Below are positions 16,650 through 63,454 of a DNA stretch of 64,000 bases, piece by piece (positions within the stretch are counted from its first letter, which is position 1; each line of letters starts with the position of its first letter). The position numbers were made by a program, and so were the translations under genes. The notes under the pieces are model-generated. The model saw only the letters and a list, made by a program, of their open reading frames with translations, was not told the origin of the DNA and did not search any database. This DNA is from Patescibacteria group bacterium (lineage in GTDB: Bacteria > Patescibacteriota > Patescibacteriia > Patescibacteriales > UBA12465): assembly GCA_050949505.1 (NCBI GenBank), contig JBMNFV010000001.1, positions 509,644-573,643 on the forward strand, given 5' to 3'.

Positions 16650-16680
16650 ATAAGCCGTTTAATAATAAACGGCTTTTTTA
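16650..16680 (+). terminator. intrinsic terminator
   Basis: agccgttt(16653-16660) / aaacggct(16667-16674) followed by T5. Confidence 0.75.
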
Positions 16681-16733
16681 TTTCCTAAATTAAGCTTTAC
16701 TAATGTCGTTTTTTGTAATAAACTAAGGGTATT

Positions 16734-43000: not shown

Positions 43001-43897
43001 TTGAAGTATGCTAGCGTAATTGCTCCACCTGCCCTTATCAGCACTATTCTTTAGTCCTGCCTCTGCTTCTTTTGTGATATCTAGACCTACCTTTGACATG
43101 GTTTGAAGTATGCTAGCGTAATCGCTCCACCAGTCCTTATCAGCACTGCCCTTTAATCCTGCCCTTGCCTCTTCTTCTGTAATGCCTAAACCTGCCTCTG
43201 ACATGGTTTGAAGTATTCTAGCGTAACTGTCCCACAAGCCCTTATCAGCACTGCCCTTTAATCCTACCCTTGCCTCTTCTTCTGTAACACTTAAACCTGC
43301 CTCTGACATGGTTTGAAGTATGCTAGCGTAATTGCTCCACCTGCCCTTATCAGCACTATTCTTTAGTCCTGCCTCTGCTTCTTTTGTGATATCTAGACCT
43401 ATCTCTGATATGGTTTGAAGTATGTTAGCGTAATCGTTCCACCAGCCCTTATCAGCACTGCCCTTTAGTCCTGCCTTTGCCTCTTCTTCTGTAACACTTA
43501 AACCTGCCTCTGGCATGGTTTGAAGTATCTTAGTGTAATCGTCCCACTTATTCTTAGCGGCATTATCTTTTAAATTTTTATCTAAACAAAGCTCTATATC
43601 AATAACTTGGGCAATATTTCTTTTTTCTTGTAAGGCTTCTCGTTCTAGTTTTTTTAGTGCTTCTGAGTCTTCTGAGTTTTTATTATAATAATCAAGAGCT
43701 TCAAAGAAGATTTTACTACTCACATCTTCCATTTTTCTTTTATCTAATAGTTCTCCGTCAAAATTCCATTTGTGAGGCTTAAGGTCTTGGCCATACTTTA
43801 GTTCTAAGTCTGCTGGGATAAACCTTTTAAGAAACTCTCGCTTAGTTTTCTTTTTTTCTATTCTTTGTCTAATATTTAAATTAAATCCTTTTTCCAT
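40067..43897 (-). CDS. giant multidomain protein: ~11 tandem 34/35-aa helical repeats, unknown central Cys-containing domain, GNAT-like C-terminal domain
   Basis: 1276-aa uninterrupted ORF. Repeats occupy aa ~104-480. The central motif is LWDRDPKKDLFQGNYSQCCIAVG. The C-terminal ~150 aa looks like a GNAT fold (AVGYLSAYS...LYVDSIAG...KLGYKKISLHGINPRLNTALKRSGF). No signal peptide. Confidence 0.85.
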   Translation of the reverse strand: MEKGFNLNIRQRIEKKKTKREFLKRFIPADLELKYGQDLKPHKWNFDGELLDKRKMEDVSSKIFFEALDYYNKNSEDSEALKKLEREALQEKRNIAQVIDIELCLDKNLKDNAAKNKWDDYTKILQTMPEAGLSVTEEEAKAGLKGSADKGWWNDYANILQTISEIGLDITKEAEAGLKNSADKGRWSNYASILQTMSEAGLSVTEEEARVGLKGSADKGLWDSYARILQTMSEAGLGITEEEARAGLKGSADKDWWSDYASILQTMSKVGLDITKEAEAGLKNSADKGRWSNYASILQTMPEAGLSVTEEGARAGLKGSADKGWWSNYAKILQIMSEAGLSVTEEEARVGLKGSADKGWWSDYAKILQIMSEAGLSVTEEARRGLSSSVNEDRWDSYASILKTMSEAGLDITKEARAGLKGSANDGWWNGYASILQVMSKVGLDITEEEARVGLKGSADNGWWSDYAKILQVMQKANILNFNNPTAKSIKSYIKEQREEDQSFLQESIRLSLFNNKSLEDINKKNGIYPTYQSLVSLGVSVNEGIQEESKKVREPEAFFAANSITIAQMLSLESPLILGLIKEHINEGLPKFNGYLELYKNIFDQTRNRELIQAALDNNSFSHPHELGTFLEIVNAYQKSDKIETLSQLVAENSPNLNEQASQQLLAFIAEEVGVSEDEIKTKREDWKTEYLPNLVSNDQMLESRGMDNARELYRSLLKASFKNEFDNFLFDTNQDDEVGQDVALHNSKVKEIFTDNGIDFAKWLKYEATQDFLVSTEVEIDRKEHYQSILSARVTDVINALAPLKDKLSSREYQPLLHILEGKDKKGLNSSNQLQEQFNNLKERINNLQNKEEYSNFPEWPTVYEYLGHLEEAVVDMNKPNFKETEQRERGFRVKLWDRDPKKDLFQGNYSQCCIAVGVKDAPVGGGLTTHDPSTVMQYLADTGINVIEILEEGKRDPIGNTWIFVSKNSDGEPILVLDNIELNNNYTKDPHINNSLRDNLFQFAKDYAKEVGLAGAGLGLVGTNDIDWKNWSKDNRMRVPQVDTISGYLSKYTANIANRSGRYYLEAFNHQELGKIWDQREDKKTPEKKESLTQEGLVITYDLERGVQEEYPNTETGFATLTAQHNSSLEAMAQQIEEIEDSIFGDKGLNEDIEDILNNMSQARAISFLFTEKNKAVGYLSAYSANLLEVPDHNYDKDEATLYVDSIAGKVDPFRTLNQLKEKAKKLGYKKISLHGINPRLNTALKRSGFIVKEEIPNWYGQPAEYLELDLEE
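42460..43590 (-). repeat. tandem coding repeat, unit 102/105 bp, about 11 copies
   Basis: Consensus unit GLKGSADKGWWSDYAKILQTMSEAGLSVTEEEARA. It includes a 94-nt perfect duplicate (42995-43088 = 43307-43400). Confidence 0.9.
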
Positions 43898-47531: not shown

Positions 47532-48542
47532 TTAAATAAACTTCTTAACGTAGTCAGCTAGGTCAACTAAGCGATTAGAGTAGCCCCACTCATTGTCATA
47601 CCAAGCAATCACCTTAAGCAGGTCGCCAGCAACAACTGCCGTTGACTGAAGATCAACAATAGCACTATGAGGGTTGCCCACGATATCACTAGAGACTAGA
47701 TAATCATTGCTTGCCTCCAGAATTCCTTTTAGTTTTCCTTGAGAAGCTTTAACAAACTCCGCTTTAACTGCCTCGGGAGTAGTTTTTTTAGCTAAAACAT
47801 AAGTAATGTCGCACAAGGAACCAACAGGAATTGGCACTCGCAAGGCTAGACCATTAAACTTATCCTTAAGACTAGGAATAGTCTCCGCTACTGCTGTAGC
47901 TGCTCCGGTAGTGGTTGGTACTATATTAACCGCTGCCGCCCGAGCGCGACGCAAATCTTTGTGTGGCCCATCAACAATGTTTTGGTCAGCTGTATAAGCA
48001 TGAACCGTGGACATAACTGCTTTTTTAATGCCAAACTTTTCTCTAATTACCTTAGTGGTAGGAGCCAAGCAATTAGTGGTACAAGAGGCACAAGAGAAAA
48101 CATGATCGCTTTTATTTAACTTATTCTCATTAACCCCCATCACTATTGTTTTGCAACCCTTACCTGGAGCTGAGACAATCACCTTCTTAGCGCCTGCTCC
48201 TAGATGGGCGCTGGCTGCCTCCTGAGTGCGAAATATTCCGGTGCATTCTAAAACAACATCCACTTTTAGCTTCTGCCAAGGTAATTGACTAGGGTCTTTC
48301 TCAGAAAAAACTGAAAACTTCTGCTTACCAATTCTTAGAGAATCTTTAGTACTTTTTATCTCCCGATGATATTTCCCATAACAAGAATCAAATTGAAGTA
48401 GTTGGGCAAGAGTCTGGGTGTCAGTTAGGTCATTAATTGCCACTACCTTAAGCTGAGGGTATTTGTCTAAAATAATCTTAAATGAAGCTCGGCCAATCCG
48501 GCCAAAGCCGTTAATCGCTACCTTGAGTTGTTTTTTTGCCAT
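47532..48542 (-). CDS. gap: type I glyceraldehyde-3-phosphate dehydrogenase
   Basis: NGFGRIGR, active-site SCTTNCLAP, and WYDNEWGYS. Confidence 0.95.
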   Translation of the reverse strand: MAKKQLKVAINGFGRIGRASFKIILDKYPQLKVVAINDLTDTQTLAQLLQFDSCYGKYHREIKSTKDSLRIGKQKFSVFSEKDPSQLPWQKLKVDVVLECTGIFRTQEAASAHLGAGAKKVIVSAPGKGCKTIVMGVNENKLNKSDHVFSCASCTTNCLAPTTKVIREKFGIKKAVMSTVHAYTADQNIVDGPHKDLRRARAAAVNIVPTTTGAATAVAETIPSLKDKFNGLALRVPIPVGSLCDITYVLAKKTTPEAVKAEFVKASQGKLKGILEASNDYLVSSDIVGNPHSAIVDLQSTAVVAGDLLKVIAWYDNEWGYSNRLVDLADYVKKFI

Positions 48543-50820: not shown

Positions 50821-50853
50821 AAAAATACCCGACTAAACTAGTCGGGTTTTTTA
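50821..50853. terminator. bidirectional intrinsic terminator
   Basis: A5 - cccgacta(50828-50835) / tagtcggg(50839-50846) - T6. Confidence 0.75.
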
Positions 50854-50898: not shown

Positions 50899-52383
50899 CT
50901 ACTTTTGATAGAGATTGGCTAATAGTGAATTTAGGGTAGCTGCTAAGGAGTTTTGTCGCGAGGCTAGCTGGCGATAACTGGTGGTAAGCTCATTGTATTT
51001 GGCCACTAATTCATTGTAGCTAATTACTCCTTGATTATATTCCTTAAGCTTTCCCTGTTGGTATTGACTAGCTAGTTCTTGTTGCCTCTTGTCTAGCTCT
51101 TCTTTTTTTACCTTTAAAACCTCTAAAGAGGTGGTTAGTTCTAGCTCTAAGCTAGTTAATTCATTTTGAGCCCTTTGAAAGTTAGCAATTTTCTGCTTAG
51201 TACTATCTAGGCCCTGATAAACTAGCCCTGAACTAGTTTGGTATATTTCCAATTCTCCTAAACCCTGGTCGTTAAAAAAGTTATTTTCTTGTGAGATATT
51301 TTGCACCCGACCATCGCTAATGCTCTGAGGAATTACTCCCAAGGGAAAATAGTTAGTGGTTTCTATATAGCAATACCCTGTTTCTCGTAAAGAATCCTCT
51401 CGCGGGCAAGCCACACCAAGGGCACTATGATTAATTTCCGGAAAGTCTAAAATAGCGGCCCCATAACCCAAGTGGCGGAGTATTTTGAGTCCTAGAAAGA
51501 CTTTATCCGAGCAAACTCCTTTGTTAAGGTAGAGGGTTTCGTAGGGGTAATAGGGGTTAGTGTTTAGGCTATGGAGATTTTCCACCTTACCATTATCATA
51601 AGGAATGTATTGGACTAGCGCTAAGGCAAATTCTAGAAACTGATCACTAGACCAGTGTTTATCTTCAGCCAGTTTCTCCAATTTCTTTATTAAGTTTATT
51701 AAACTCTGGTCACCTTCTCGGGCAGAGAGAAACAGGCCATAAAAACTCTCTCGGGGATTGGCTGGCGGTTGATTGCTAGGGTAATATAGGGTTTTAGGGG
51801 ATTTTTGATAAACCTTAAAAAGCTCAGCGGAAAGGTCAAGGCCAACTTGATAGGCTTGATTTTGGTATTTAAAATTATAATAATGACTAGCGCTTTGAGA
51901 CTCTATGACTAACTCTTCTTTAAGGCTCTGCTTAGCCTGAGGAATGCGCGCTAAGTTCTGATTACTAATTCCTAAAGCTTGCTGACGCATTAAGGCAAAA
52001 GCATCCGCTGGTCGGCCCAGATAAAATAGTTTTAAGGTAAGGGGATTAATATAATAGGCTTGCCCTTTATCTTCTACTTGCAAAAGAATGCGGCCCGCTA
52101 AACGCTGGGGAGCAGTTTTGTTTAAGAATGACTCCAAATCACTATTACTCACTCCTAGGCCCCAAGTACGCATTAGCTCAAAAGCATCAGCGGGACGGCC
52201 TAAGTAATAGCGGTGATTATCTAAAGGATTAACATACCAGGCCTGCCCCTGCTCTTCTACTTGTAATAAGATCCGGCCTGATAAGTGCGGTAGTTCTTGA
52301 GCCTGCCCTGATTTAGCAAAAAAGATGCTAACTAATATAGCGAGGCTAATAATCAAGTAGTTTTTATTAATCCTTATTTTCAT
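50899..52383 (-). CDS. secreted protein: duplicated ~50-aa N-terminal module, transglutaminase-like core, C-terminal coiled coil
   Basis: Signal peptide. Two copies of GRILLQVE(E/D)(Q/K)GQA(W/Y)Y(V/I)NPL...YLGRPADAF(E/A)LMR (nt ~51946-52287). KGVCSDKVFLGLKILRHLGYGAAIL...NHSALGV...YIETT resembles a Cys-His-Asp/Glu transglutaminase-like core. Confidence 0.75.
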   Translation of the reverse strand: MKIRINKNYLIISLAILVSIFFAKSGQAQELPHLSGRILLQVEEQGQAWYVNPLDNHRYYLGRPADAFELMRTWGLGVSNSDLESFLNKTAPQRLAGRILLQVEDKGQAYYINPLTLKLFYLGRPADAFALMRQQALGISNQNLARIPQAKQSLKEELVIESQSASHYYNFKYQNQAYQVGLDLSAELFKVYQKSPKTLYYPSNQPPANPRESFYGLFLSAREGDQSLINLIKKLEKLAEDKHWSSDQFLEFALALVQYIPYDNGKVENLHSLNTNPYYPYETLYLNKGVCSDKVFLGLKILRHLGYGAAILDFPEINHSALGVACPREDSLRETGYCYIETTNYFPLGVIPQSISDGRVQNISQENNFFNDQGLGELEIYQTSSGLVYQGLDSTKQKIANFQRAQNELTSLELELTTSLEVLKVKKEELDKRQQELASQYQQGKLKEYNQGVISYNELVAKYNELTTSYRQLASRQNSLAATLNSLLANLYQK

Positions 52384-52409: not shown

Positions 52410-53082
52410 TTAGTCAGCTAAGGCGGCAAATAAATCTTCCTTAGGAGTCTCTGGTAAGTGTCCAGCATTATTAATATAAGCAATCTTAACATAACCATCT
52501 CGATCTATAACTAATTTAGTGATAGATGACTGATATATCTCTAAGGATAAGAAGCCTAAGACGTCAGCGTTTAAAATTCCGGTTACCATTGCTTTAATTA
52601 AATTACCATGAGAAAAGATCGCTACTTTCTTGCCAAGATGTTTTTTAAAAATACTATTTAAAGTTCTTCTGGTCTTAGCCTGCATTTTGTCCAACTCTAA
52701 GTCGGCCTCTTGGTAATTAGGAAACTTTTTTTCTCTAGTTTTTTCTGACATATTAAAAAACTTAGCTCGCTGCCAATGGATCCAATTAATCTCGTTAAGC
52801 CGTTTGTCCACTATTAGCTTCTTGTTGGTTTTTTTTAAATATAGCTCTGCTGACTCTAAGGCTCTAGTTAGCTCACTAGAGTAGACAGCCGAAAAATTCA
52901 TTTTCACTAATCTATTGGTAAGCATGCTGCCTTTGTTTTAAGCCCGTCTTTGACAAGGGCATTTTTGCCTCACCAACTTTCTTTTCTAAATTATAATCAG
53001 GGTGGCAATGCCTAATTAAATAGATTTCCGTATAAGGCTTACGGGTCTTAGGCTTAACCTTAACGTAAGGATTTTTATACAT
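52410..53082 (-). pseudogene. histidine phosphatase (PGAM-like) gene split by a frameshift
   Basis: The 56-aa ORF 52912-53082 (my translation: MYKNPYVKVKPKTRKPYTEIYLIRHCHPDYNLEKKVGEAKMPLSKTGLKQRQHAYQ*) carries the RH catalytic motif. ORF 52410-52925 carries the rest (...FSAVYSSELTRALESAE...IFSHGNLIK). The two overlap by 14 nt in different frames. Confidence 0.7.
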
Positions 53083-53110: not shown

Positions 53111-54061
53111 TTATTTATTCGGTAAAATTATCTTAGCGGCCGCTAATTGATCTTTGAGCTTCAGTACTCGCTCTGGAGAGGTAAAGGTAAAGGGGCCAAA
53201 ACTCTGAGGAGCAATTAGTTTCAACTGATAAGCTGAACGATTACTTAATAGCTTAATTAACTGTTGAATGGCCAAGTCCTGGTCATTAATATTTTTTAAC
53301 AGCACATAGCTAAGATTTACCTGTCGCCCTCCTTGCTGTAAGTAGAAATCAATCGCTTTAAATAGGTCATAAATTGGTGAGCTAGCCGTCGCTTCTAAGT
53401 CGCGTCGCAGTTCATCATTGCTAGCCAGCAGAGAGATATTTAAAGAAATGGGTAATTTAGCACTAGCCAATTTTTTTAAGCCCGTAGCTGGTGCTGTGGT
53501 AACTATTCCTAAGCGCCGCCAGCCCTTCCCTAGAGTTTCTGGATTATTCATAAACTTAAGCGCCCTGACAACCTCTTTAACATTTAACAAGGGCTCTCCC
53601 ATGCCAGCCAAAATTATGCGATTAATCTTGTTAGTGGGCTTATTCTCTTTTAAATAGCGCTCCCAAAAAACCAACTGCTCAATAATTTCTTCCGCTTGTA
53701 AGTTACGCTTAGTCTTAAGGCCTGGCTTTAGGGATAGGCCATAAAAATTAGGGGCAGCTACTTGAGAAGCTAGATAAACTACTACCTCCTCTTTCCCAGT
53801 TATAGCTAAACTGGTCATTACTTTTTCGCCATCTTCAAGGCTAATTAGGGCTTGTTGTTGCTTAGCAAAGACCGGCTTTTCCACTAACTCCGCCTTAATG
53901 GTTAAGGGGCAAGCGGCCTCTAATTTAGTTCGCAAGGATTGAGGGAAAGTTGATAGTTCTTGCCAGGAAGAGATAAAGTCTCGCCACAGGGCTTGATAGG
54001 CTTGCTGGTAACGATACTGAGGCTCTTGGCTTAAAATATTTGATAAATTTTTTAAATTCAT
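53111..54061 (-). CDS. RlmN/Cfr-like radical-SAM-fold protein lacking all cluster and catalytic cysteines
   Basis: Collinear with E. coli RlmN as I recall it (ASQV..., KRNLQAEEIIEQL, AGMGEPLLN, LNISLLASNDELR, LSYVLLKNIND). The CxxxCxxC region instead reads YLASQVAAPNFYGLS. The whole protein has only one Cys. Confidence 0.8.
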   Translation of the reverse strand: MNLKNLSNILSQEPQYRYQQAYQALWRDFISSWQELSTFPQSLRTKLEAACPLTIKAELVEKPVFAKQQQALISLEDGEKVMTSLAITGKEEVVVYLASQVAAPNFYGLSLKPGLKTKRNLQAEEIIEQLVFWERYLKENKPTNKINRIILAGMGEPLLNVKEVVRALKFMNNPETLGKGWRRLGIVTTAPATGLKKLASAKLPISLNISLLASNDELRRDLEATASSPIYDLFKAIDFYLQQGGRQVNLSYVLLKNINDQDLAIQQLIKLLSNRSAYQLKLIAPQSFGPFTFTSPERVLKLKDQLAAAKIILPNK

Positions 54062-54071
54062 AACCGCTTAT

Positions 54072-55172
54072 TTATTTAGTCTGTCTTAAATCAGTAATTA
54101 GCTTTTGATAGGCCTCTAGATTATTAAGGCTGGCTAATCTTTGCCCCAAGGGTTCCTGGAGTTTAAATAAGTGATGAAGAAAGGCTAGGTGATTATTCCT
54201 TAATTCTGGTAGCTGACTAAGAGGATTAATGGCTTGAAAATTCTTTTTAAACCTAGTGTTAGAGATGTTAATGGTTTTTAGGCGCTGCTGGCTGGGCAGG
54301 AATAGTCTGCCATGACGCCCTTCTCTAGTGGGAATAACACAGTCAAACAAGTCCCAACCTAGTTTAGCAGAACGCTTAATATCTGCTAGCGTCCCTATTC
54401 CCAGGGCAAACCGAAGCGACTCTTGGGGAATTAGCTTAGCGGTTTCTTTTAGCATCTTGCTCATAAATTTCCCCGTAGTATCTATTGGACTACCCCCAAA
54501 GCCATAACCCGCAAAGCCTAACTTGACCAGCTCGGTGGCACAATATTTTCGCAAGACTAGGTTCTCTCCCCCTTGAATTACTGCAAACAAGAGGGGGCGC
54601 TGGAGACCAGTTAGCCCTCGGGCCACTATTTGCCTTTCATACTCCAACTTAGATCGCTTTGCCCAAGCGATCGTTCTGTCAACTGATCGCTTTAAATCTG
54701 CCTCACTAAAATCGTTAGCAGGACAGTCATCTAAGCAAATCATCGCATCAACCCCTAGGTCAAACTGAATTTGAATAGACTTCTCCGGACTAATTTCATG
54801 CCGTGAACCATCCAGCGGTGACTTAAAAATTGCTCCTTGGTCACTTACCTCTCCTAGTTGGGCCTGACTATGTATTAAGGAAAAAATTTGAAAACCCCCC
54901 GAGTCTGAAATTAGTACTCCCGGCCAATTCATAAAGCGATGAATTCCTCCCGCTCGTTTTATTACCTCTAGGCCAGGCTGAAGATAGAGGTGAAAAGTAT
55001 TAACTACCAGTGCTTCAGTGCCTGTCGTCTTAATTTCTTTAGTAGTTAATAGCTTTAAAAAGCCTCGGGTGGCATCAGGGAGGTAGAGCGGGGTTTTAAT
55101 TTGGCCATGGGCAGTTTTTAATTTTCCCTGACGAATTCCCGCTTCAGTTTCTTTTAATAGTTTAAAGCTCAT
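54072..55172 (-). CDS. tgt: tRNA-guanine transglycosylase-like protein lacking the structural Zn site
   Basis: ISDSGGFQIFS, ICLDDCP and GWDLFDCVIPTREGRHGRLF are conserved. The Zn-ligand positions CxCxxC...H read S319, L321, L324 and N350. Confidence 0.8.
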   Translation of the reverse strand: MSFKLLKETEAGIRQGKLKTAHGQIKTPLYLPDATRGFLKLLTTKEIKTTGTEALVVNTFHLYLQPGLEVIKRAGGIHRFMNWPGVLISDSGGFQIFSLIHSQAQLGEVSDQGAIFKSPLDGSRHEISPEKSIQIQFDLGVDAMICLDDCPANDFSEADLKRSVDRTIAWAKRSKLEYERQIVARGLTGLQRPLLFAVIQGGENLVLRKYCATELVKLGFAGYGFGGSPIDTTGKFMSKMLKETAKLIPQESLRFALGIGTLADIKRSAKLGWDLFDCVIPTREGRHGRLFLPSQQRLKTINISNTRFKKNFQAINPLSQLPELRNNHLAFLHHLFKLQEPLGQRLASLNNLEAYQKLITDLRQTK

Positions 55173-55174
55173 AT

Positions 55175-57151
55175 TTAAGGTTTTATCTGCCCCGTATTAT
55201 TCATCGCTGCTATATCATCATCCTCTAATTTAGTAGTTTTAACGGCAGTCTTTTTTCTAATTAGACCATTAGTCTCCGTGTCATTAGCTTCAATAATTGC
55301 CCCTGGGGAGATAACTAAAATTTTATCAACATCACTATCACTTGGTCTTAAGCTTAAATCAAATTCGGCATCGGCTCGATAAACTGAAACTGGCAAACGG
55401 CCAATCTCCCAAATAACTTGATGCTTGTCTTCATTGTAGCTTAGGCTGCCTACATTGGTATTTAAACGATCTCCCAGATTAATGTAACTAGGCAAAGCTA
55501 AACTTACCTGGGTACCACTTAGCTCATGAAGATTGTTTTTCACTGACCAATAAACTCTGACCGTACTTAGCTCCCCGACCTTAGGTGGCAAGGGGCCAGT
55601 GCCGACTGGTAAGTTATCATCATTGAAATAAAGGATTCGCTCACTTAAAGTAAGGTCGCTATTAAATGGACTAATAATAACATTGCTCTTATTACTCTCC
55701 CCTAAGCTCTCCTTGTTATTAACCCCATACTGAGCATAGGCACTAACTTCGGTGCTTTTCCCTAAATCAAAGTCCTTAAACTCTAAAGTCTTTATAGAAA
55801 AATCTATCTTCCCTTCTTTACCTGATTTAATTTCAGCTAACTCTGGTAATTCTTGTTTAGTCCACATAATCGTCTTTCCCTTAATCTCTCCGGCTGTCGC
55901 CAATTTAAGACTACCGAAGTCTAGAAAATCTCCTTTTAGGGATACTAAAATAACTACGTCTTTAAAACTAGCTTCACCTTGATTATTATAACTAACTGAA
56001 TAGTTTAAGGTTTCTCCAAAATTAATTGCCTGGTCAGACTTGTTGTCATTAAGGGTGATGGTTAAATTAAGGTCACTCTTAACCAACTCTGGTTGAAAAG
56101 ATTTTTCCCAGAAGACATAAGATTGGCCATCCTCAAGTTTCTTTTCCAACCTTACCTTGATTTCCGAATTATTTACCTGAGTCTTAATTTGATAATCAAT
56201 TATAATCGCTTGACGCTTAACCGCCTCAGTTAACTGGCTAATTTGCCAATTATTACCAGTGCCCTTGCTAAGCTGAAAAGATTCCTCAGACTGGTCTTTG
56301 AATTGGTCTAGATTAATACTAACATCACTTTCCTCCGGCAAAGAAAAACTTAAATTTAAATCTCCTAAATTATTATTCTTCACTTCCGATAACCACAAGA
56401 TAATCTGGTTGTCTTGGCCAATAAATGAGGTGCGACTATATTCTAAGTCCGCCTTAAATCCAAAGTCACTTAAAACCGTTGTCGTGATTGCTTCTTTTTT
56501 AAATTGGGCGGAGTAGTCAGCCGGTGAATAGCTTAAACGACTAGTCGCAACATTAACTGACTCTGGCTTGTTAATTAGCCTGCCCATGATCACTAGTTGC
56601 CCCTCTCCATTGGGCCCAATATCTGGCAGATTCCAACCATAGTCTCCATTTTGTGGCTCAAGGGAAAAGTCTGAGATAATAAAATTATCAGGATACTGCA
56701 ATTCTAAATAGACCTGACTTAAGGTGGTGCGATTAGGATTACGGTATTTTATTTCATAAGAAAATTCTTCTCCCACCGCCACTGTTTCGGGAGCGATCAT
56801 CTCTAGTTTTAAGGCCTCATAGTCATTATCAGTGCTTAAATAAATATAAGCGAAATAAGCGGCAATTGCTAAAAGAGCTACCACTAAGAGCTTTCTAAAA
56901 ATTCTAACTAAAAATATTTGGCGCTTTTTTATTTTCATTTTTTTCACATCTATTAAGCTGCCTTGCTTGTCTTTGTAAATTTCCGTTAAGTTATCATCAA
57001 TCTCCTGACCTCGCGCCTCTTTATGGATAACTCGCTCAAAGCTGGAGACCTCCTGATCATTGGGGACCGGTCTTTCTATAAACGCTGATAAGCCGGAAGT
57101 TTTTTCCCGCTCTACCCGAAGAATTTTTTTTACCTTTTTTTTCTCTGCCAT
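55175..57151 (-). CDS. single-pass membrane protein with repeated beta-rich extracellular modules, 'GTGPLPP' family
   Basis: TM segment LLVVALLAIAAYFAYIYL. The C-terminal LPVGTGPLPPKVGELSTVRVYWSVKN...VIWEIGRL is homologous to 23743-24816. Confidence 0.8.
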   Translation of the reverse strand: MAEKKKVKKILRVEREKTSGLSAFIERPVPNDQEVSSFERVIHKEARGQEIDDNLTEIYKDKQGSLIDVKKMKIKKRQIFLVRIFRKLLVVALLAIAAYFAYIYLSTDNDYEALKLEMIAPETVAVGEEFSYEIKYRNPNRTTLSQVYLELQYPDNFIISDFSLEPQNGDYGWNLPDIGPNGEGQLVIMGRLINKPESVNVATSRLSYSPADYSAQFKKEAITTTVLSDFGFKADLEYSRTSFIGQDNQIILWLSEVKNNNLGDLNLSFSLPEESDVSINLDQFKDQSEESFQLSKGTGNNWQISQLTEAVKRQAIIIDYQIKTQVNNSEIKVRLEKKLEDGQSYVFWEKSFQPELVKSDLNLTITLNDNKSDQAINFGETLNYSVSYNNQGEASFKDVVILVSLKGDFLDFGSLKLATAGEIKGKTIMWTKQELPELAEIKSGKEGKIDFSIKTLEFKDFDLGKSTEVSAYAQYGVNNKESLGESNKSNVIISPFNSDLTLSERILYFNDDNLPVGTGPLPPKVGELSTVRVYWSVKNNLHELSGTQVSLALPSYINLGDRLNTNVGSLSYNEDKHQVIWEIGRLPVSVYRADAEFDLSLRPSDSDVDKILVISPGAIIEANDTETNGLIRKKTAVKTTKLEDDDIAAMNNTGQIKP

Positions 57152-57169
57152 ATTATTAAGGCCTAATAA

Positions 57170-59698
57170 TTAATAAATTAATGCTGACCAATATTCGTCT
57201 TGATTTAAAATTGTCTCAATTTTCCACTGACTAGTTTGAGCAGCTTCTGGATAAGACCATAACACTTTTCTATCTTTAGGAAAATTAATCTGAGCGGAAA
57301 AACTGCTAGGCTTGGCTCCTGCTTGTTTTTGTAACAATAAGCTATGGCGATATCTAGTCTCTGATAGTTTAAATAATTTACTCAAATAAGCCAATGACTC
57401 TCCTTGAGGAGCAACTTGCTCCCAAATATTAATTGGTAGTTGATACTTTAAAACAATCTCGGCTGTCTCTCCTGGTTTTAACAATACCCAATTAGCAAAG
57501 ACGGTTTTGCCACTGTCTTCATAGGTTAAGGTTTGGCTAAGAGCGTCTCTAGTCGCCTCTCGCTCTTTAGCTAACTCAGCTAATTGCTCCCAATGACTCT
57601 CCGGTTTTTTTTGTAAAAATTCTTCAGCCGGAGCATTAAAGCCGGTGGCAGAAATTAGCTGACTACCTAAGGGCACATAGACTCTTAGCCAGTCATTATT
57701 CTGTGCCCCGGTAAAGGGCTCACCTTTTAGTCCTTGGTGCGTTCTAGTTATTTTCAAAGTATTGATAATCTCTCCCGAAGGAGCAATGTCGCTACTTAAC
57801 TCTAGATCTTCTACAATGACCTGATCGGTTTTTTGGCCAGCAATATTGGTATGAATAACTGCTAAATAGTCCCCAGGGGTTTCCTTAATTTCCCCACTCA
57901 AATTGTAGCGAGAAGCTTCACTTTGCAAGTCCTGGTTAGAGAAATAGAATAATATTTGCTTAGAACTTAACTCTTGCTGAAGTAGGCTTAATATCTTTGG
58001 CCAAGAGTCTTGATTAATCTTTTCTGGCAAGACTTCTAGAATTCTTACCATTAAGTCACCAATAATTTTCTTAGGCTTGTTATCTGTATTTTGCTCTAAA
58101 TCTTGCTCTAGGGGAATACTGGACTCTATCGCTTCCTGATAATTCGTCAAGTTGCTAACTAACTCTGGAAACTCAGCGACTATATTATCTCTCTCTACCA
58201 TAAGCTGCAGCATCATTTGAAAATTATCACTGGTTATCTTTAGGTCATATTCCGGCAAATCAATCGGACCAGTGATCGTTAGCAGGTCAATAACTACTTG
58301 GGGGGTAAAGCTAATAACCCCATCTACCGTGGGCCCGCCACTTTTCTCATAAAACCACTGTAAGTGTTGAGCAGTCTTAGGCCAGTCAGGCCACCAGTTA
58401 GCATCCCAAAAATACCAACGAGGATTAATTACCCATAAGGGCTCTGGGGCCACTACCTGGACTTGCAGACCCCCTTCTAAGTCATAAGCTCCGCCACCCG
58501 GCACTTCTAAATTCTTTATCTCTCCCTGCTTTAAGTCTAGCAAGGCGTAGCTACCAATAAAACCGCCACTCGCTCGTATTTCCGCATTGTTTTGAAAGAT
58601 TAATAAATAGCGCTGATCGGTATCCCGACCTAAAATAGTTTGAATATTTTCAACTGATGATAATAGGGCCTTAAAGTTATTGCTAAAAAACACCAACTGT
58701 TCCTTAAGTTCAATAAACTTGACTTGGTGCTCTGTCGGTAAATTCTTTAATTTAATCTTGGCTAACTCTAATGACAACTGCTCCGCTTTTATTAAAGCTT
58801 CTTGAGCTAAACTACTAAAATTAGTTAAGCGGGTAGATAAATTTTGCTCAGCCACTGACGGCGATAACCAGGCATCGGTCGCTAAAGAAATGTCCTTAGC
58901 TAGCGCCGTAGCGGTTATTCCCGCGGCTAAAAGCTTCTTGCTCTCACTAGCTAACCTAAGTTTAGGATTATTAGACAAACTCGCTAGGGTTAAGATGACT
59001 TGACTAACTGACTCCAGCTCTGTCTGAGCCTGAGCCAAATAGTCGGTCGCTAAAGAAAAGTCTTGTCCCGCTTGCTGGAAATCCGCTAAAGAAATTTCCT
59101 GCTCCGCTGCTTTTAAACTACTAAAGGCTCCTTGTATCTTTTCTGAAATATTGTTTTCTAGCTCCCGAAAGTTTAAGACCTGCCAGCCTGACAAAGCCTT
59201 AAGTGGCAAGATAATTAAAATTAAAATAGAGATAAAACCAAGCAGTGAGCGGTAAACTAATAACTTGCTTTTTAACCTACTAAGCCCTCGTTCTTCCTGG
59301 GCCTGTCTTTTTCGTTTGGACTTTAGTCGCTTGGCACTATTTTCTAAAATTGGTGACCAACGACTAAGTCGTTTTTGGTAAATTTTTAGCCAACGATTTT
59401 TGGATTGTTTAGTTTTCTTTTTAAATAAACTCTTTGGCCACTTAAACTTTAAGCCTGAGCGCTTAGTGGGACCAATCTTTAGCCAGCTGCTTGAGCGCTT
59501 ATTTCTCTTGCCGGGCCAAAATTTAAAACTAGTCTTTACCTTAGATCGCTTAGGAATACTAATTTTTAGCCTTTTATCTTTCTGACTAGTCTTTTTAGAC
59601 CAGACCTCGGCAACTGGCTGTCGTAAATCTACTACAAAGCTAGAACTCTGGTCCCGTCGTAAAAATGCCCTATTAGTTGTTTGTCTTTTTTTATTCAT
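57170..59698 (-). CDS. DUF4012 domain membrane-anchored protein (second copy)
   Basis: Basic N-terminal tail and a TM segment. QNNAEIRASGGFIGSYALLDL and WYFWDANWWPDWP. The ATG at 59698 overlaps the upstream stop (ATGAATAA). Confidence 0.85.
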   Translation of the reverse strand: MNKKRQTTNRAFLRRDQSSSFVVDLRQPVAEVWSKKTSQKDKRLKISIPKRSKVKTSFKFWPGKRNKRSSSWLKIGPTKRSGLKFKWPKSLFKKKTKQSKNRWLKIYQKRLSRWSPILENSAKRLKSKRKRQAQEERGLSRLKSKLLVYRSLLGFISILILIILPLKALSGWQVLNFRELENNISEKIQGAFSSLKAAEQEISLADFQQAGQDFSLATDYLAQAQTELESVSQVILTLASLSNNPKLRLASESKKLLAAGITATALAKDISLATDAWLSPSVAEQNLSTRLTNFSSLAQEALIKAEQLSLELAKIKLKNLPTEHQVKFIELKEQLVFFSNNFKALLSSVENIQTILGRDTDQRYLLIFQNNAEIRASGGFIGSYALLDLKQGEIKNLEVPGGGAYDLEGGLQVQVVAPEPLWVINPRWYFWDANWWPDWPKTAQHLQWFYEKSGGPTVDGVISFTPQVVIDLLTITGPIDLPEYDLKITSDNFQMMLQLMVERDNIVAEFPELVSNLTNYQEAIESSIPLEQDLEQNTDNKPKKIIGDLMVRILEVLPEKINQDSWPKILSLLQQELSSKQILFYFSNQDLQSEASRYNLSGEIKETPGDYLAVIHTNIAGQKTDQVIVEDLELSSDIAPSGEIINTLKITRTHQGLKGEPFTGAQNNDWLRVYVPLGSQLISATGFNAPAEEFLQKKPESHWEQLAELAKEREATRDALSQTLTYEDSGKTVFANWVLLKPGETAEIVLKYQLPINIWEQVAPQGESLAYLSKLFKLSETRYRHSLLLQKQAGAKPSSFSAQINFPKDRKVLWSYPEAAQTSQWKIETILNQDEYWSALIY

Positions 59699-60887
59699 GA
59701 ATAACTGATAGATAAATTTGCCAAGTATCCATCGCACAGCGCTGCCAATCATACTTCGCCACCTGCTTTAAACCGCGCTTTTGCAATTCTTGGCGCTCGG
59801 CTTCATTATGAAAAATAGCTAACATCTTTTTAACTGACTCTTCTTGGTTGCTGGGGTTAAAATAGACAGCCGCTTCCCCTAGTACTTCGGGGAGAGAGCC
59901 CTGGTCAGAACTAAGCACCGGACACTGATAAGCCATCGCTTCTAAAGGAGGCAGGCCAAAGCCCTCATAAAGTGAGGGGAAAATAAATACTCTGGCCGCT
60001 TGATATAAGCTAGCTAATTGAGCATCACTTACCTGCCCTAAAAATACCACTGGATTATTCTCGGCTCCCTTTTTCCAGAGACCTAAAGACTCTGCCTGCC
60101 TACTTAGTCGTTGATAGAAATAATCACTCTTGCCCACTAGCGCTAACTGGGCCTGCGGCTCTGCTGCTAAAAATAGTTTAAAAATTTCTAACAAAGTCTC
60201 TAGATTTTTATGGGGATAAGCGCTCCCTACATACAAGAAGAATGGCTTGTTTAATAATTTAAATATAGCTAAATTTTCTGCTGCCGATTGTTGAAAAAAC
60301 TTAGTGCCATCTTTGTCTAAGTCTGCCACTCCCTCGTGGGTAACTTTAATTTTCTCCGCTGGAGCGGAAAATTTCTTAATTAAATCCTGTTTGGTAAATT
60401 CTGATACCGCAATGATTACCCGCGCTCGTCTAATTGCCGTTTTAATTACCAAGCGATAGGCTAAATTTTTGAAATAATATTTTATCGGCGACAAGGTACT
60501 AGCTCGCGGTGAGGGGAAATAGGTTAGAATTAAATCATGGATGGTAACAATGAACTTGGTTGGCGTTAAAATTGGCACATTAAAGTGCGGGAAATGAATT
60601 AGGTCTAAGCGTGCTCGCCAAATTAGCCAAGGCAATATTAATTGTTCTTGCCAAGAGTACCAAGGCACTCGCCAGAGTACTTTTTTTACTAAAGGCGAAG
60701 GACAGTGATAGTCAGCAAAGTTATCAGGACTTAAAAAGACCAGAAACTCTATTTCCGTCTGAGTAGTTTTTTTGTTTTCCTGCTCTTTAATGTTAATGGC
60801 AATCACCCTATCTACCACTTCTTGAACATATCTTCCTAAACCCTTACCACTGGGACCATAAAAGCGAGCATCTATTCCTATGCGCAT
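59691..60887 (-). CDS. glycosyltransferase family 4 (GT-B)
   Basis: MRIGIDARFYGPSGKGLGRYVQEVV, with C-terminal PSLYEGFGLPPLEAMA. Confidence 0.85.
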   Translation of the reverse strand: MRIGIDARFYGPSGKGLGRYVQEVVDRVIAINIKEQENKKTTQTEIEFLVFLSPDNFADYHCPSPLVKKVLWRVPWYSWQEQLILPWLIWRARLDLIHFPHFNVPILTPTKFIVTIHDLILTYFPSPRASTLSPIKYYFKNLAYRLVIKTAIRRARVIIAVSEFTKQDLIKKFSAPAEKIKVTHEGVADLDKDGTKFFQQSAAENLAIFKLLNKPFFLYVGSAYPHKNLETLLEIFKLFLAAEPQAQLALVGKSDYFYQRLSRQAESLGLWKKGAENNPVVFLGQVSDAQLASLYQAARVFIFPSLYEGFGLPPLEAMAYQCPVLSSDQGSLPEVLGEAAVYFNPSNQEESVKKMLAIFHNEAERQELQKRGLKQVAKYDWQRCAMDTWQIYLSVIHE

Positions 60888-60889
60888 AG

Positions 60890-62311
60890 TTATACAAATG
60901 GTAAATTATCAGGCGCTCCTTGATTATCTGACTGTTGGCTTGGCTGCTGTTTAAAATCTTCCTCTTTAACTAATAAGTCACTAGTAAAGTCGGGAGTAAT
61001 GGTCTTAGTTAAGTCAGGAATTGGCAGTGAAGAAGGAGCATCTGCCTTTCTCCCGGGCACCTTTTGAATCATCGCTGACTTAACATTAGCTTCAACTGGG
61101 AAGTGCCACAAGGTTGCTAGTTCTTCTATGTTTAGCAGGTAGGGCTCTCGACCACAATTGGAGCGATTAATATAGTTATTAAAAATATTTCGCTTTTTTC
61201 TAGCCAAACGTCTAGCTTTATTAAAATAGACTGCCTTAGTCATGGTTCTTTTAAGGTCTGGTTTAAAGCTATTTAAATCTAGAGAAATAAATTGCTTAAT
61301 GTAGCCAACAAAACCATTAACTACCTTAGCCTTATTCATCACTTCTTTGCGAGCAACGTAAATAATCCTAATTTTAGCATTAAAGCCCATCTTAGTTGAC
61401 TTCTGATGGATGCCCTCTAACTGTCTCGCTTCTACTGGCGTTAAGTCAAACATTGTCTTGCTCGTATCTGGATCCTTGTTAGGTTGGGCATCTTGCCAAA
61501 TAGGAAAAATGACCTCGCTTAAATCTCCAACCCAGCCCAAGAGACGCAAAAAGAGTGAAGGTTTAGCTTTTTTCTTTCTTCCCAAAATTTTATTCATCTG
61601 GTCCTGCGAGCCTTTAACCCAATCAAAGCCCGTGGGAGTCACTATCATTTGAAACCAGAATTGCTCTCCTTGTCGTAAGGTGCTACATAGATCCATAAGC
61701 AAGGCCATCGGGTCTTTAAATTGAGTTTCTAGGGGGCCTGATTTGTATTCAAATTCTGGATAGGTCTTGATCGGAATGTACCAAGGATTTTGTAAGATAA
61801 ATTCTGAACCAAAGATATCCCAATCACTATCTGGATAACTAGGGGGAACCGTATTTACATAGTCATCTACTTCAGAAATTTCCGCATCTGGATATTGAGA
61901 ATAAACAGAAGATTCAATTAGATTTCTATATTCGGCTGGCGTTCTGATTAAAAATTGCGTATAACCCTCTAAACTAACTATCTCATAACTAAATGATTTT
62001 TGATATTCACCTGCTATCCACTTTTCATAGAAATTTTGCGAACCATGCGCTCCTCCCAGATAGGTGAACATATTCTCTACTGCTTTAGGAGTTTGCTCAT
62101 TCCCCTTAGGAATGTCTATCGCTAGTAGTATCCATTTGTGACCCTCACTCCATTTACGGCGAATATAATAAAGCCAAACATCACGGGCCCCAATTAAAAA
62201 AACTATCCCAAAAGCAATCCAGCCATAGTTGCTTAACAATAGCCAAATTGCCTCAGCTGGGGGTAGCTGGATAAAATCTTGAAACGGAGTCCAATCAAAG
62301 ACAATATTCAT
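60890..62311 (-). CDS. membrane protein homologous to the N-terminal domain of the 831-aa VirD4/TraD-like ATPase (no ATPase domain)
   Basis: Shared blocks: FSYEIVSLEG...YSQYPDAEISEVDDY vs FSFEIVANQQ...QAYYPEAVIEPIEDY; IPIKTYPEFE vs FPLKTYQKME; LNIEELATLWHFP vs LNSEELASIFHFP. Confidence 0.8.
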   Translation of the reverse strand: MNIVFDWTPFQDFIQLPPAEAIWLLLSNYGWIAFGIVFLIGARDVWLYYIRRKWSEGHKWILLAIDIPKGNEQTPKAVENMFTYLGGAHGSQNFYEKWIAGEYQKSFSYEIVSLEGYTQFLIRTPAEYRNLIESSVYSQYPDAEISEVDDYVNTVPPSYPDSDWDIFGSEFILQNPWYIPIKTYPEFEYKSGPLETQFKDPMALLMDLCSTLRQGEQFWFQMIVTPTGFDWVKGSQDQMNKILGRKKKAKPSLFLRLLGWVGDLSEVIFPIWQDAQPNKDPDTSKTMFDLTPVEARQLEGIHQKSTKMGFNAKIRIIYVARKEVMNKAKVVNGFVGYIKQFISLDLNSFKPDLKRTMTKAVYFNKARRLARKKRNIFNNYINRSNCGREPYLLNIEELATLWHFPVEANVKSAMIQKVPGRKADAPSSLPIPDLTKTITPDFTSDLLVKEEDFKQQPSQQSDNQGAPDNLPFV

Positions 62312-62350
62312 AAAAATTTTATATAAACTGCTTTTATTTTAGCACATTTT

Positions 62351-62390
62351 TATAAAAATAAAAACCCAATCACTAGTGATTGGGTTTTAT
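62351..62390 (-). terminator. intrinsic terminator after 62414-63454
   Basis: aacccaatcac(62363-62373) / gtgattgggtt(62377-62387), followed on the minus strand by TTTTTATTTTT. Confidence 0.7.
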
Positions 62391-62413: not shown

Positions 62414-63454
62414 TTAACGAGACCATTCTGTGAGACCATAAGTGCCTCGTCCAGTCAAAACATAACGATTATCTAAAATTAATTCATTATGAACTGTAGC
62501 GGCATTGGCAGTTTTTTTGTCAAATTTAACTTCATTGATTCTAGCCGCTATTTCAGTAAAGTGCAGTGGTTGTTTTTCGTGCTTTAGCACTAAATAGATC
62601 TTATCATTTATTGTCTTAGGCTTAATTTCCTGAGAGTCTGATAGGCCCCAGTCACCAAAGCGATTTTGTCCTAAGTTTTTAATAGCTTGAATAAAAGAGT
62701 ATAGAACCTTATTACTATTAATGATCTCAGCCTTATCAGGGAAAACCTTACTTTTAAAGACTTTGAAAATATTAGACCCGGACTCTTCCTTAAACTTTTC
62801 TTGATACTTGTTATAAGCATCCAGTTGCCTTAATAACTCTAGCAATTCTTCGGTAGTATAAGTTTTCTTAAGCAGGTCCACCTTAGCTAACAAGTCATCA
62901 GCTAATTCTTCTAGATAATTAACTGACTCATCTTTAATTTTATAGGCATCATAGAAATTATCATCCTTAGCAATTAACTCTAAGTCCTTGTCCATTAGTC
63001 TAGATAAAATGAAATCAAAGTGATTATGATAAGTGGCTCGCTTAGCTTCATAATTATCAGACTCATATTTTAACTCCTTATCTATTTCCAGAGACATGAC
63101 GGTTAACATATCTAAGAGGTACTCTCGCCTAACTAAACCACCATGATCTTTTAGAAGCTTGTAGACCGTCTGCTTTAAAATACTAATCTGACCCTCTAGG
63201 TCATCTAGTTTTTTAATTTTCTTAATACTCGCTGACTCTATCTGCCTCACTCGCTCTCTGGTTAATTGATGCTCTTGACCAATTTTCTCTAAGGTCTCCC
63301 GGCGACCACTTAACAAGCCAAAGCGACGAGATAAAATATCTCGCTCTCTATCTAGTAGTTTTGAGAATAGGTCATTAACAATTCGGACGGCATCTAATCG
63401 GGTTAACTCCTCAGTTCTCTCTTTTTTTATCATTTTTTCCAATAAATTCTCCAT
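62414..63454 (-). CDS. sigma-70 region 4 HTH + C-terminal HARE-HTH-like domain protein
   Basis: The N-terminal RERDILSRRFGLLSGRRETLEKIGQEHQLTRERVRQIESASIKKIKKL matches region 4.2 of sigma-70. The C-terminal KIYLVLKHEKQPLHFTEIAARINE...TVHNELILDNRYVLTGRGTYGLTEW resembles the RpoE-delta/HARE-HTH pattern. Confidence 0.75.
   Translation of the reverse strand: MENLLEKMIKKERTEELTRLDAVRIVNDLFSKLLDRERDILSRRFGLLSGRRETLEKIGQEHQLTRERVRQIESASIKKIKKLDDLEGQISILKQTVYKLLKDHGGLVRREYLLDMLTVMSLEIDKELKYESDNYEAKRATYHNHFDFILSRLMDKDLELIAKDDNFYDAYKIKDESVNYLEELADDLLAKVDLLKKTYTTEELLELLRQLDAYNKYQEKFKEESGSNIFKVFKSKVFPDKAEIINSNKVLYSFIQAIKNLGQNRFGDWGLSDSQEIKPKTINDKIYLVLKHEKQPLHFTEIAARINEVKFDKKTANAATVHNELILDNRYVLTGRGTYGLTEWSR

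Follow-up and report, generated by a model that had tools for sequence, protein, structure and literature searches.

Several described systems bear on the gene string considered here. Bacterial tRNA-guanine transglycosylase (Tgt), which targets G34 of tRNA, has a Zn site that has been treated as a hallmark of its family, and the eukaryotic version of the enzyme (TGT) contains an inactive subunit, QTRT2. RlmN, a radical S-adenosylmethionine (SAM) methyltransferase, targets both A37 of tRNA and 23S rRNA. In Escherichia coli, tgt is co-transcribed with membrane and export genes in the order queA-tgt-yajC-secD-secF, with no known biochemical link between them. Cell-surface structures are thought to be central to host attachment by ultra-small bacteria of the Candidate Phyla Radiation (CPR) type. 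Here we examine a stretch of 64,000 nucleotides (nt) from a Patescibacteria group bacterium (contig JBMNFV010000001.1, positions 509,644 to 573,643; hereafter the window), in which six packed minus-strand genes between 62311 and 53111 encode, in order, a DUF8128 protein of 473 residues, a GT4 glycosyltransferase, a DUF4012 protein, a 658-residue protein with predicted immunoglobulin (Ig)-like domains, a Tgt and an RlmN-like protein. An initial annotation had described this string as an envelope module carrying a degenerate Tgt/RlmN pair.

Comparison with the closest described systems reveals a mixture of likeness and departure. With the bacterial Tgt proteins (TIGR00430, PF01702; E. coli and Zymomonas mobilis) the Tgt of the window shares the (β/α)8 TGT domain and the residues D89, D143 and D264, but S, L, L and N stand in place of the CxCxxC...H ligands, and the base pocket reads G-[AG]-[RS]-P-[VI]-D-x together with RFALG, in both cases throughout its clade. 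The RlmN-like protein is homologous to the RlmN/Cfr radical-SAM methyltransferases (TIGR00048; PDB: 6fz6, 3rfa), occupies the syntenic position of rlmN and retains the N-terminal domain and the GMGEP and RNL motifs, whereas the CxxxCxxC motif, the equivalents of C118 and C355 and about 20 C-terminal residues are gone and its score is half the family cut-off. The predicted fold of the DUF8128 protein may resemble the N-terminal domain of VirB4/TrwK (Foldseek probability 1.0, E 1.5e-4), and a paralogue in the window fuses the same domain to an ATPase of the type IV secretion system (T4SS) type. Unlike VirB4, the DUF8128 protein has no ATPase and no sequence match to that family, the TM-score is 0.31, the string holds no other T4SS components, and DUF8128 is instead encoded with glycosyltransferase and surface-protein genes. 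The E. coli queA-tgt-yajC-secDF operon likewise places tgt with membrane-protein genes, but the partners are different, queA is not adjacent to the tgt of the window, and the present arrangement belongs to one Patescibacteria clade. With the Gram-positive capsular and exopolysaccharide (EPS) loci, such as that of Bifidobacterium longum 105-A (PMC5412050), the string shares a DUF4012 gene beside a GT4 gene, and a second DUF4012 gene of the window lies with Wzy_C, two GT4 genes and a Wzz-like gene; unlike those loci, it includes the VirB4-NTD-like (N-terminal domain) and Ig-domain proteins and lacks a priming transferase, flippase, polymerase and chain-length regulator.

Our overall reading, which we consider likely, is that the string represents a conserved co-directional unit comprising an envelope module, a working Zn-free Tgt and an RlmN-derived pseudoenzyme. 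Literature searches found no paper on DUF8128, none on the block of five genes from DUF8128 to tgt, and nothing relevant on RlmN pseudoenzymes or Cys-less RlmN, or on Tgt and queuosine in CPR/Patescibacteria, including Zn-less Tgt.

Gene order and boundaries of the string

Three sets of loci were compared: contigs around RlmN homologues, contigs around DUF8128 homologues, and 80 GTDB species-representative loci obtained by a scan with the DUF8128 alignment. Genes of the relatives were annotated by tblastn combined with assignment of open reading frames (ORFs). The GTDB loci were the best 80 of 214 DUF8128 loci, to which 8 metagenome contigs were added, and the homologue searches with DUF8128 and the 658-residue protein were filled by relatives at least 50% identical. 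In every locus that reached far enough, genes for a Sigma70_r4/HARE-HTH protein, DUF8128, GT4, DUF4012, the 658-residue protein and TGT follow one another in this order on one strand, and 72 independent loci among the species representatives and metagenome contigs include TGT. The comparison of gene neighbourhoods that the initial annotation had suggested as a check is thus strongly positive for the five genes from DUF8128 to TGT.

The spacing within and around these five genes is equally regular. Median gaps inside the block are 7, 2, 11 and 5 nt in the relatives, and the internal junctions are nearly all 90 nt or less, the sole exception being one of 825 nt between DUF8128 and GT4. The spacer 5' of DUF8128 always exceeds 50 nt, with a median of 114 nt; a terminator-like hairpin is present there in 61 of 79 species, and the pattern TGnTAnnnT in 77 of 79, as against 0-2 occurrences at each internal junction. 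No terminator was found at the four internal junctions in the 69-79 species compared. Past tgt the packing loosens (median spacer 45 nt) and the next gene varies, being pyruvate kinase (pyk) in 50 of the 72 loci, Metallophos in 8, RlmN in 3, Eno in 1 and some other gene in 10. The block accordingly displays the properties by which operons are recognized, namely a single strand, short spacers, no internal terminator and conservation across genomes, and its conserved 5' terminator and promoter together with the absence of terminators at the four internal junctions are consistent with the co-transcription that had been proposed.

The features of the string and its boundaries in the window are the following:

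62361-62388, minus strand: intrinsic terminator hairpin AAAACCCAATCACTAGTGATTGGGTTTT with a T-run, ending the upstream Sigma70_r4/HARE-HTH gene
62336-62346, minus strand: extended -10 element TGTGCTAAAAT, 25 nt 5' of the DUF8128 start codon
60890-62311, minus strand: DUF8128 (PF26449) protein, 473 residues (precomputed PF26449 match and VirB4-NTD-like model)
59691-60887, minus strand: GT4 glycosyltransferase, 398 residues (Pfam matches)
57170-59698, minus strand: DUF4012 protein, 842 residues (Pfam); the longest ORF begins at 59752
55175-57151, minus strand: 658-residue Ig-like surface protein (weak Pfam matches and AlphaFold2 model)
54072-55172, minus strand: Tgt, clade variant without the Zn site (PF01702, TIGR00430); last conserved gene of the block
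53111-54061, minus strand: RlmN-derived pseudoenzyme, 316 residues (homology and synteny)
52410-53082, minus strand: His_Phos_1 (phosphoglycerate-mutase-like) gene (Pfam), frameshifted into an N-terminal fragment (53082-52912) and a C-terminal fragment (52925-52410)
50899-52383, minus strand: 494-residue protein with a weak transglutaminase-like (DUF553) domain, syntenic in relatives; final gene of the packed string
50821-50852, minus strand: hairpin terminator AAAAAACCCGACTAGTTTAGTCGGGTATTTTT, the first terminator-like site 3' of the string, which scores on both strands

Much of the layout given by the initial annotation was recovered. The ORF listing of the window returned all six minus-strand ORFs at the coordinates at which they had been reported. 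The successive junctions of 2 nt, an 8-nt overlap (cATGAATAA, between GT4 and DUF4012), 18 nt, 2 nt and 10 nt reproduce its spacings exactly. The terminator claimed 5' of the string corresponds to the hairpin at 62388-62361, and, as claimed, no convincing minus-strand terminator was found within the six genes. Two points need qualifying. Tight packing alone is weak evidence of coupling, since it is typical of this genome: in the window the median gap between co-directional genes is 17 nt, 21 of 40 such gaps are 20 nt or less, and the coding density is about 93%. Nor does the string end at 53111: the packing goes on with gaps of 28 and 26 nt as far as the terminator at 50852-50821. The apparent 185-nt gap below 53111 contains the frameshifted N-terminus of the His_Phos_1 gene, which has a 1-nt insertion at about 52922-52931 (GGCAGCATGC, versus GGCATC-TGC in L089, a second strain of this species). 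The ORF of the second strain is intact and encodes 223 residues, and the split in the window reflects either pseudogenisation of very recent date or an error of assembly. The family motif RHG reads RHC in this protein in both strains.

We propose that a single long co-directional transcription unit, shared by a large Falkowbacteria-type clade of the Patescibacteria, has this string as its 5' part. Transcription would start at the extended -10 element just past the terminator of the Sigma70_r4/HARE-HTH gene, would cross DUF8128, GT4, DUF4012, the 658-residue gene and tgt without meeting a terminator, and would then run into a variable tail of housekeeping genes. In L090, a member of a different Patescibacteria lineage, rlmN lies in an unrelated context, which indicates that the block belongs to this one large clade and not to the whole phylum. 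Many contigs of the clade are titled 'uncultured Gammaproteobacteria bacterium' (L009, L011-L013, L017, L018 and others), one is titled Bacillota and one Clostridia; these titles look wrong.

The gene immediately upstream (62414-63454, minus strand) encodes a protein of 346 residues with sigma-70 region 4 and a C-terminal HARE-HTH domain that resembles the delta subunit of RNA polymerase. It has its own terminator and lies directly 5' of DUF8128 in 79 of 79 relatives, and its product could serve as a regulator of the block. Further upstream in the relatives are the dcw genes and genes for an RmlD-like epimerase, a nucleotidyltransferase and a GT2 protein, a set that is consistent with a cell-envelope neighbourhood.

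The four putative envelope proteins

The DUF8128 protein received no family in our Pfam scan, the release used being older than PF26449, which is precomputed for exactly this protein and its homologues. The homologues number 2690, with identities of 55-72% among the 120 matches listed and of 57-72% across Patescibacteria. In the AlphaFold2 model (mean pLDDT confidence score 69.7) a long N-terminal transmembrane (TM) helix is followed by a globular domain of mixed α/β structure and a disordered tail, and the basic residues after the TM helix suggest that the globular domain is cytoplasmic. A Foldseek search of the PDB with this model, whose pLDDT is about 70, returned TrwK/VirB4 chains or VirB4-containing R388 T4SS assemblies as its top 13 matches (probability 0.87-1.0, query TM-score 0.25-0.33), the best having an E value of 1.5e-4, a probability of 1.0 and a query TM-score of 0.31. 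A sequence profile searched against the PDB gave no match to VirB4 and nothing meaningful. The VirB4-like matches agree with the existence of an 831-residue paralogue (29814-32309) that fuses the same domain to a T4SS-type ATPase: the 473-residue protein matches its N-terminal 400 residues (BLASTP, 1e-20), and its C-terminal half is a T4SS-type P-loop ATPase (TrwB_AAD_bind, T4SS-DNA_transf, TraG-D_C). Only the paralogue carries such a P-loop domain, which is absent from the 473-residue protein. At the C-terminus of the latter (within 60890-61090; loci L006-L088) a disordered linker of about 60 residues leads to a conserved P-x-NLPF[VA] motif, which looks like a short docking peptide.

The ATPase part of the paralogue, which is encoded on the minus strand, belongs to the VirD4/VirB4 superfamily. 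A 357-residue protein paralogous to the C-terminus of the 658-residue protein is encoded some 5 kb downstream, also on the minus strand (23743-24816). The genes dnaX and serS and one for a GHL15/FG-GAP protein are situated between the two, and the pair may represent a second, looser copy of the same association.

The second gene of the string encodes a glycosyltransferase with matches to Glycos_transf_1 (9e-34, 116.9 bits) and Glyco_transf_4 (2e-12, 47.8 bits) and with the E-x7-E motif visible in its translation (EGFGLPPLEA). In NCBIfam only sub-threshold matches were obtained, to many GT4 families of EPS, teichuronic acid and protein glycosylation. It was found in 81 of 81 relatives, matches three other GT4 genes of the window by BLASTP, and is a generic cytoplasmic transferase of the GT-B fold. 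The DUF4012 protein (PF13196: 7e-30, 104.9 bits versus a cut-off of 28) begins with a Lys/Arg-rich region and has a single TM helix, the DUF4012 domain being part of its large C-terminal region; a sequence search against solved structures yielded nothing meaningful. Its paralogue at 4372-6243 (BLASTP, 3e-42) lies inside a locus with Wzy_C, two GT4 genes and a Wzz-like gene. DUF4012 has been named among the families enriched in the CPR (PMC6744442) and occurs in the EPS cluster of B. longum 105-A (PMC5412050).

For the 658-residue protein Pfam gave only weak matches to DUF11 and DUF7619. In the AlphaFold2 model (pLDDT 79) the N-terminus is disordered, a TM helix covers approximately residues 79-105, and 4-5 all-β Ig-like domains (DUF11/CLIPPER, DUF7619) follow it; Foldseek returned only generic strings of Ig domains, such as integrin α legs, α-2-macroglobulin and the S-layer protein SbsB. 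Homologues in 71 relatives are 33-60% identical and share an invariant V-G-x-G-x-L-P-P motif in the final portion of the protein (VGTGPLPP in the window; columns V516, G517, G519, L521, P522 and P523). The C-terminus matches the 357-residue protein mentioned above (BLASTP, 4e-06). BLASTP of all window ORFs against each other thereby bears out the earlier statement that families of the string recur elsewhere in the window.

The domains and topology of these four proteins fit the envelope or surface role that the initial annotation had ascribed to them. In our reading the DUF8128 protein would be a membrane-anchored scaffold with a VirB4-NTD-like fold and no ATPase, the GT4 protein a cytoplasmic sugar transferase, the DUF4012 protein a bitopic protein of the type seen in Gram-positive exopolysaccharide loci, and the 658-residue protein a bitopic protein exposing its 4-5 Ig-like domains outside the cell. 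Most likely, to judge by these domains and this topology, the four genes build or decorate a surface glycoconjugate or adhesin layer. Among the genes of the string Pfam detected no priming transferase, flippase, polymerase or chain-length regulator, the set that marks a Wzx/Wzy-type assembly locus. A separate polysaccharide locus is present at 3741-12201 on the plus strand, with genes for an HTH protein, the second DUF4012 protein, a Wzy_C O-antigen-ligase-like protein, two GT4 proteins and a Wzz-like chain-length protein, and additional GT4 and WecG/TagA genes lie at 14252-17495.

The Tgt and the RlmN-like protein

The Tgt of the window is by all scores a member of the bacterial family. It matches PF01702 at 4.8e-93 (312.5 bits versus a cut-off of 26.3), clears the TIGR00430 equivalog threshold (313.4 bits versus 306.75), is 37% identical to E. 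coli TGT over its full length and has PDB matches at 2e-69. Neither the window nor any of the 72 relatives has lost the catalytic and substrate residues D89, D143 and D264 (E. coli numbering). Alignment to solved structures and to E. coli TGT confirmed the earlier claim that metal ligands have been lost, C302, C304, C307 and H333 being replaced by S, L, L and N, respectively. The corresponding positions of the relatives hold S, L/I/F/M, L/V and N; the three Cys are absent from all 72 and the His from 69 of the 72, with H in the remaining 3, and the ligands are likewise lost in the more distant L091. In the base pocket the motifs GGLAVGE and RYLMG have become GGSPIDT and RFALG in the window, and G-A-R-P-V-x-K and RFALG in the relatives.

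The same annotation had gone further and called this Tgt degenerate, a description that we reject. The Asp residues are in place, the equivalog cut-off is passed, and the divergence is normal: the protein departs from its relatives at 6 of 116 clade-invariant columns, all conservatively, which lies within the range of the relatives themselves (leave-one-out maximum 7.6%). Since the Zn ligands are missing throughout the relatives, their loss is a trait of the clade and not decay. Between the two strains the ratio of nonsynonymous to synonymous change (pN/pS) is 0.10, a value that comes from only 3 synonymous and 1 nonsynonymous differences. Among the 150 nearest TGT representatives of 50%-identity clusters, 107 keep the CCCH ligands and 37 keep at most one (some of these being fragments), which implies that the Zn site has been lost repeatedly in this region of the family. 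The R/W-P and F-L pocket is already present in the closest relatives that retain Zn (P0288, P0290 and others). Taken over the whole set (P0288-P0437), about one quarter of the representatives are without most or all of the Zn ligands, the representatives that retain them often have the G-[WR]-P / F-L pocket, and this seems to be an uncharacterised TGT subfamily with repeated loss of the Zn site. A DpdA-type DNA transglycosylase was also considered, but the protein scores as a bacterial Tgt and none of the annotated neighbours is dpdB- or dpdC-like. Retention of the active-site residues in all relatives suggests that the clade has a working, Zn-independent tRNA-guanine transglycosylase with a replaced structural Zn site and an altered base pocket. 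It would be tied to the envelope module by operon history, with no sign of a common biochemical task.

The RlmN-like protein presents a different picture. Its best PDB match is RlmN (6fz6, 1e-25) and its best database matches are RlmN proteins of Patescibacteria, and it scores 142 bits against TIGR00048, whose cut-off is 290, and 29.4 against the 29.5 of the Radical_SAM family PF04055. The region of the CxxxCxxC motif reads ASQVAAPNFYGLS where the relatives have SSQVGCPLACEFCAT, the equivalent of C118 is Y, and the deleted C-terminal segment of about 20 residues includes the AACGQL motif with C355. The CxxxCxxC motif is kept in 13 of 13 syntenic relatives and in every other full-length database homologue, and the upstream Cys and AACGQL in the syntenic relatives and nearly all full-length RlmN homologues. 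A single Cys remains in the protein of the window, as against six or seven in the relatives. Depletion of Cys across the proteome was tried as an explanation and rejected, as the window has 0.42% Cys against a median of 0.49% in the relatives, and the neighbouring genes are normal. Identity to the relatives is 40-46%, whereas the relatives are 53-77% identical to one another, and 53 of 108 clade-invariant columns (49%) are changed, against a leave-one-out maximum of 14%. The changes are unevenly distributed: residues 1-69 retain all 13 invariant columns and are 49% identical to L009, a level matching that among relatives, while in the cluster-binding segment (residues 70-130) identity is 38% versus 89%.

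The gene is nevertheless under constraint. The strain L089, from another sample, also carries the Cys-less gene, its product being identical at 313 of 316 residues. The two strains differ at 17 synonymous and 3 nonsynonymous sites (pN/pS 0.05), the same ratio as in 11 neighbouring genes pooled (102 synonymous and 18 nonsynonymous), and a binomial estimate gives P of about 6e-9 for 3 or fewer nonsynonymous changes among 20 under neutrality. In a crude simulation of neutral drift from the L009 gene to the observed divergence, about 12 stop codons arose on average and 0 of 1000 runs were free of stops. On the strength of the strain comparison and the simulation we reject the view that the gene is a pseudogene; purifying selection combined with the loss of all catalytic Cys makes its product a pseudoenzyme. 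The initial annotation was therefore correct as to the lost metal ligands, which alignment to solved structures confirmed, but the loss is found only in this species and the gene is selectively maintained, so that it is neither a module-wide feature nor a decaying gene. Only this species, represented by two strains, has the Cys-less RlmN with its truncated C-terminus. Judging from its sequence, the protein cannot be a radical-SAM enzyme, and the function retained is likely to be RNA binding.

The pair formed by the two genes is not ancestral: pyk adjoins tgt in 50 of the 72 loci, rlmN only in the three closest relatives. The commonest order downstream of the block is tgt-pyk-eno-metallophos-rlmN-(ygjP)-sod-His_Phos_1-DUF553-like-rpsB-tsf, which was probably the ancestral arrangement. 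Closer relatives are without pyk and eno, the three closest (L009, L011 and L013) are also without metallophos, so that tgt adjoins an intact rlmN, and the lineage of the window is also without sod. Successive deletions have thus brought about the adjacency of tgt and rlmN, and the RlmN-like gene occupies the position that rlmN has in L009, L011 and L013. RlmN was at first encoded further downstream, was drawn next to tgt by these deletions, and then, in this species alone, lost every Fe-S and catalytic Cys along with the C-terminus. With its N-terminal domain kept and its gene under strong purifying selection, it is a dead catalyst with a retained function.

A few further observations concern the surroundings. 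GAPDH (47532-48542) is kept, while pyk, eno, metallophos and the Fe/Mn superoxide dismutase gene are gone in comparison with L001, L003, L004, L006 and L009, a pattern that suggests ongoing loss of lower glycolysis and of the defence against oxidative stress in this lineage. An ORF of 1276 residues without a credible Pfam domain lies at 40067-43897 on the minus strand, and the relatives L001 and L004 have a protein of more than 1100 residues a few genes downstream of tsf. A tyrosine recombinase (20349-21347, minus strand; Phage_integrase and a SAM-like N-terminal domain) lies between genes for an M23 peptidase and an FtsQ-like protein, and may be XerC/D-like rather than derived from a mobile element.

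Competing explanations and significance

The position of tgt permits a reading in which it is a functional part of the envelope module, either acting through its altered pocket on a substrate other than tRNA or tuning, at position 34, the translation of surface proteins rich in Asn, Asp, His and Tyr, with all five genes co-selected. Its junction with the gene for the 658-residue protein has a median of 5 nt, measures 50 nt or less in 67 of 71 cases and is unbroken throughout more than 70 species, while at least four different rearrangements have affected the junction after tgt; the clade-distinctive pocket (G-A-R-P-V-x-K, R-F-A-L-G) and the missing Zn site point the same way. Against this, the protein passes the equivalog cut-off, keeps every catalytic residue and aligns with E. 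coli TGT at 37% identity over its full length, similar G-[RW]-P / F-L pockets in Zn-containing relatives mean that the pocket is apparently not bound to the operon, and E. coli tgt itself shares an operon with membrane-protein genes without a functional link; we regard such a role as unlikely. At the opposite extreme, the string might have no functional unity at all, its order being frozen synteny in a compact genome and its four envelope genes being independent of one another. The short gaps and high coding density of the window as a whole would fit, as would the extension of conserved order to mraZ-rsmH-PBP-murE on one side and rpsB-tsf on the other, and the presence of unrelated housekeeping genes (tgt, pyk, eno, rlmN) in the same string. 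Against it stand the conserved promoter and terminator boundary without internal terminators in 69-79 species, and the internal junctions, almost all of them 90 nt or less (one of 825 nt) between flanks that were rearranged. Elsewhere in the window three of the four families are met again, either close to one another or within a polysaccharide locus, and DUF4012 is found in polysaccharide loci of other phyla (PMC5412050). We consider an assemblage of independent genes unlikely.

Two explanations concern the RlmN-like protein in particular. Decay in a shrinking symbiont genome, by which the gene (and the 'degenerate pair' as a whole) would be a pseudogene that has not yet acquired a stop codon, could appeal to the loss of pyk, eno, metallophos and sod from this region, to the frameshift in the neighbouring His_Phos_1 gene, and to the disappearance of the C-terminus and of 49% of the invariant residues. 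It is very hard to reconcile with a pN/pS of 0.05 (17 synonymous versus 3 nonsynonymous, about 6e-9 against neutrality), with the failure of all 1000 neutral simulations to keep an open frame, with an N-terminal domain that evolves at the normal family rate, with a His_Phos_1 frameshift that is not in the second strain and with a Tgt free of any decay, and we consider it extremely improbable. Alternatively, the Cys-less RlmN could be a non-catalytic partner of the adjacent Tgt, helping it to bind the tRNA anticodon stem-loop in the manner of QTRT2. In each strain 10 nt separate the two genes, RlmN (A37) and Tgt (G34) both act on the anticodon loop of tRNA, and the pseudoenzyme is under strong purifying selection, with a fully conserved N-terminal domain beside a remodelled catalytic core. 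But the adjacency is older than the degeneration, for L009, L011 and L013 have an intact RlmN beside tgt; the additional change in the Tgt of the window is modest (6 of 116 near-invariant columns) and falls inside the spread of its relatives; and RlmN acts on 23S rRNA too, so that a ribosome-related role is equally possible. We consider the partnership improbable. More speculative still, by the same analogy, is the thought that the pseudo-RlmN is an RNA-binding subunit or chaperone of the Zn-free Tgt, a bacterial counterpart of QTRT1/QTRT2 recruited from an unrelated family, with position-34 modification co-regulated with surface-structure synthesis in Falkowbacteria-type Patescibacteria; we hold this to be quite unlikely.

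Some considerations also weigh against the reading that we prefer, that of a conserved envelope module with a working Zn-free Tgt and an RlmN-derived pseudoenzyme. Co-transcription is predicted from sequence features, and as all genes from the dcw cluster to rpsB-tsf are syntenic in the clade, conserved order does not allow function to be told apart completely from inertia. For none of the four envelope proteins has a homologue been characterised by experiment, and the string is without a flippase, polymerase or priming transferase. The VirB4-like assignment of DUF8128 comes from a model of moderate confidence, with a low TM-score of 0.31 and no profile match. Simple hitchhiking does not account for a tgt junction that is as tight and invariant as those between the envelope genes, and the changes in the Tgt pocket (L-A to R/S-P, Y..M to F..L, E to K/T) leave the substrate assignment less secure. 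Finally, the relatives covered, being the best 80 of 214 loci, are the nearer ones.

The components of the locus are of known kinds, namely an operon, a Tgt, a pseudoenzyme and DUF4012 loci, and its most testable parts are the pseudoenzyme derived from RlmN and the clade of Zn-free Tgt proteins. A more general caution is that neither the loss of metal ligands nor tight packing alone proves decay or functional coupling. The conversion of a radical-SAM enzyme into a pseudoenzyme in one species, accompanied by population-level evidence of selection, offers a probe for roles of RlmN beyond methylation. That an entire clade of Tgt proteins is without the Zn site and has a changed base pocket bears on which 7-deazaguanine can be salvaged. 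With regard to the cell surface, where DUF4012 had previously only been flagged as CPR-enriched, the undescribed and strictly conserved five-gene unit provides a testable CPR envelope gene set in a large clade of ultra-small, probably symbiotic bacteria.

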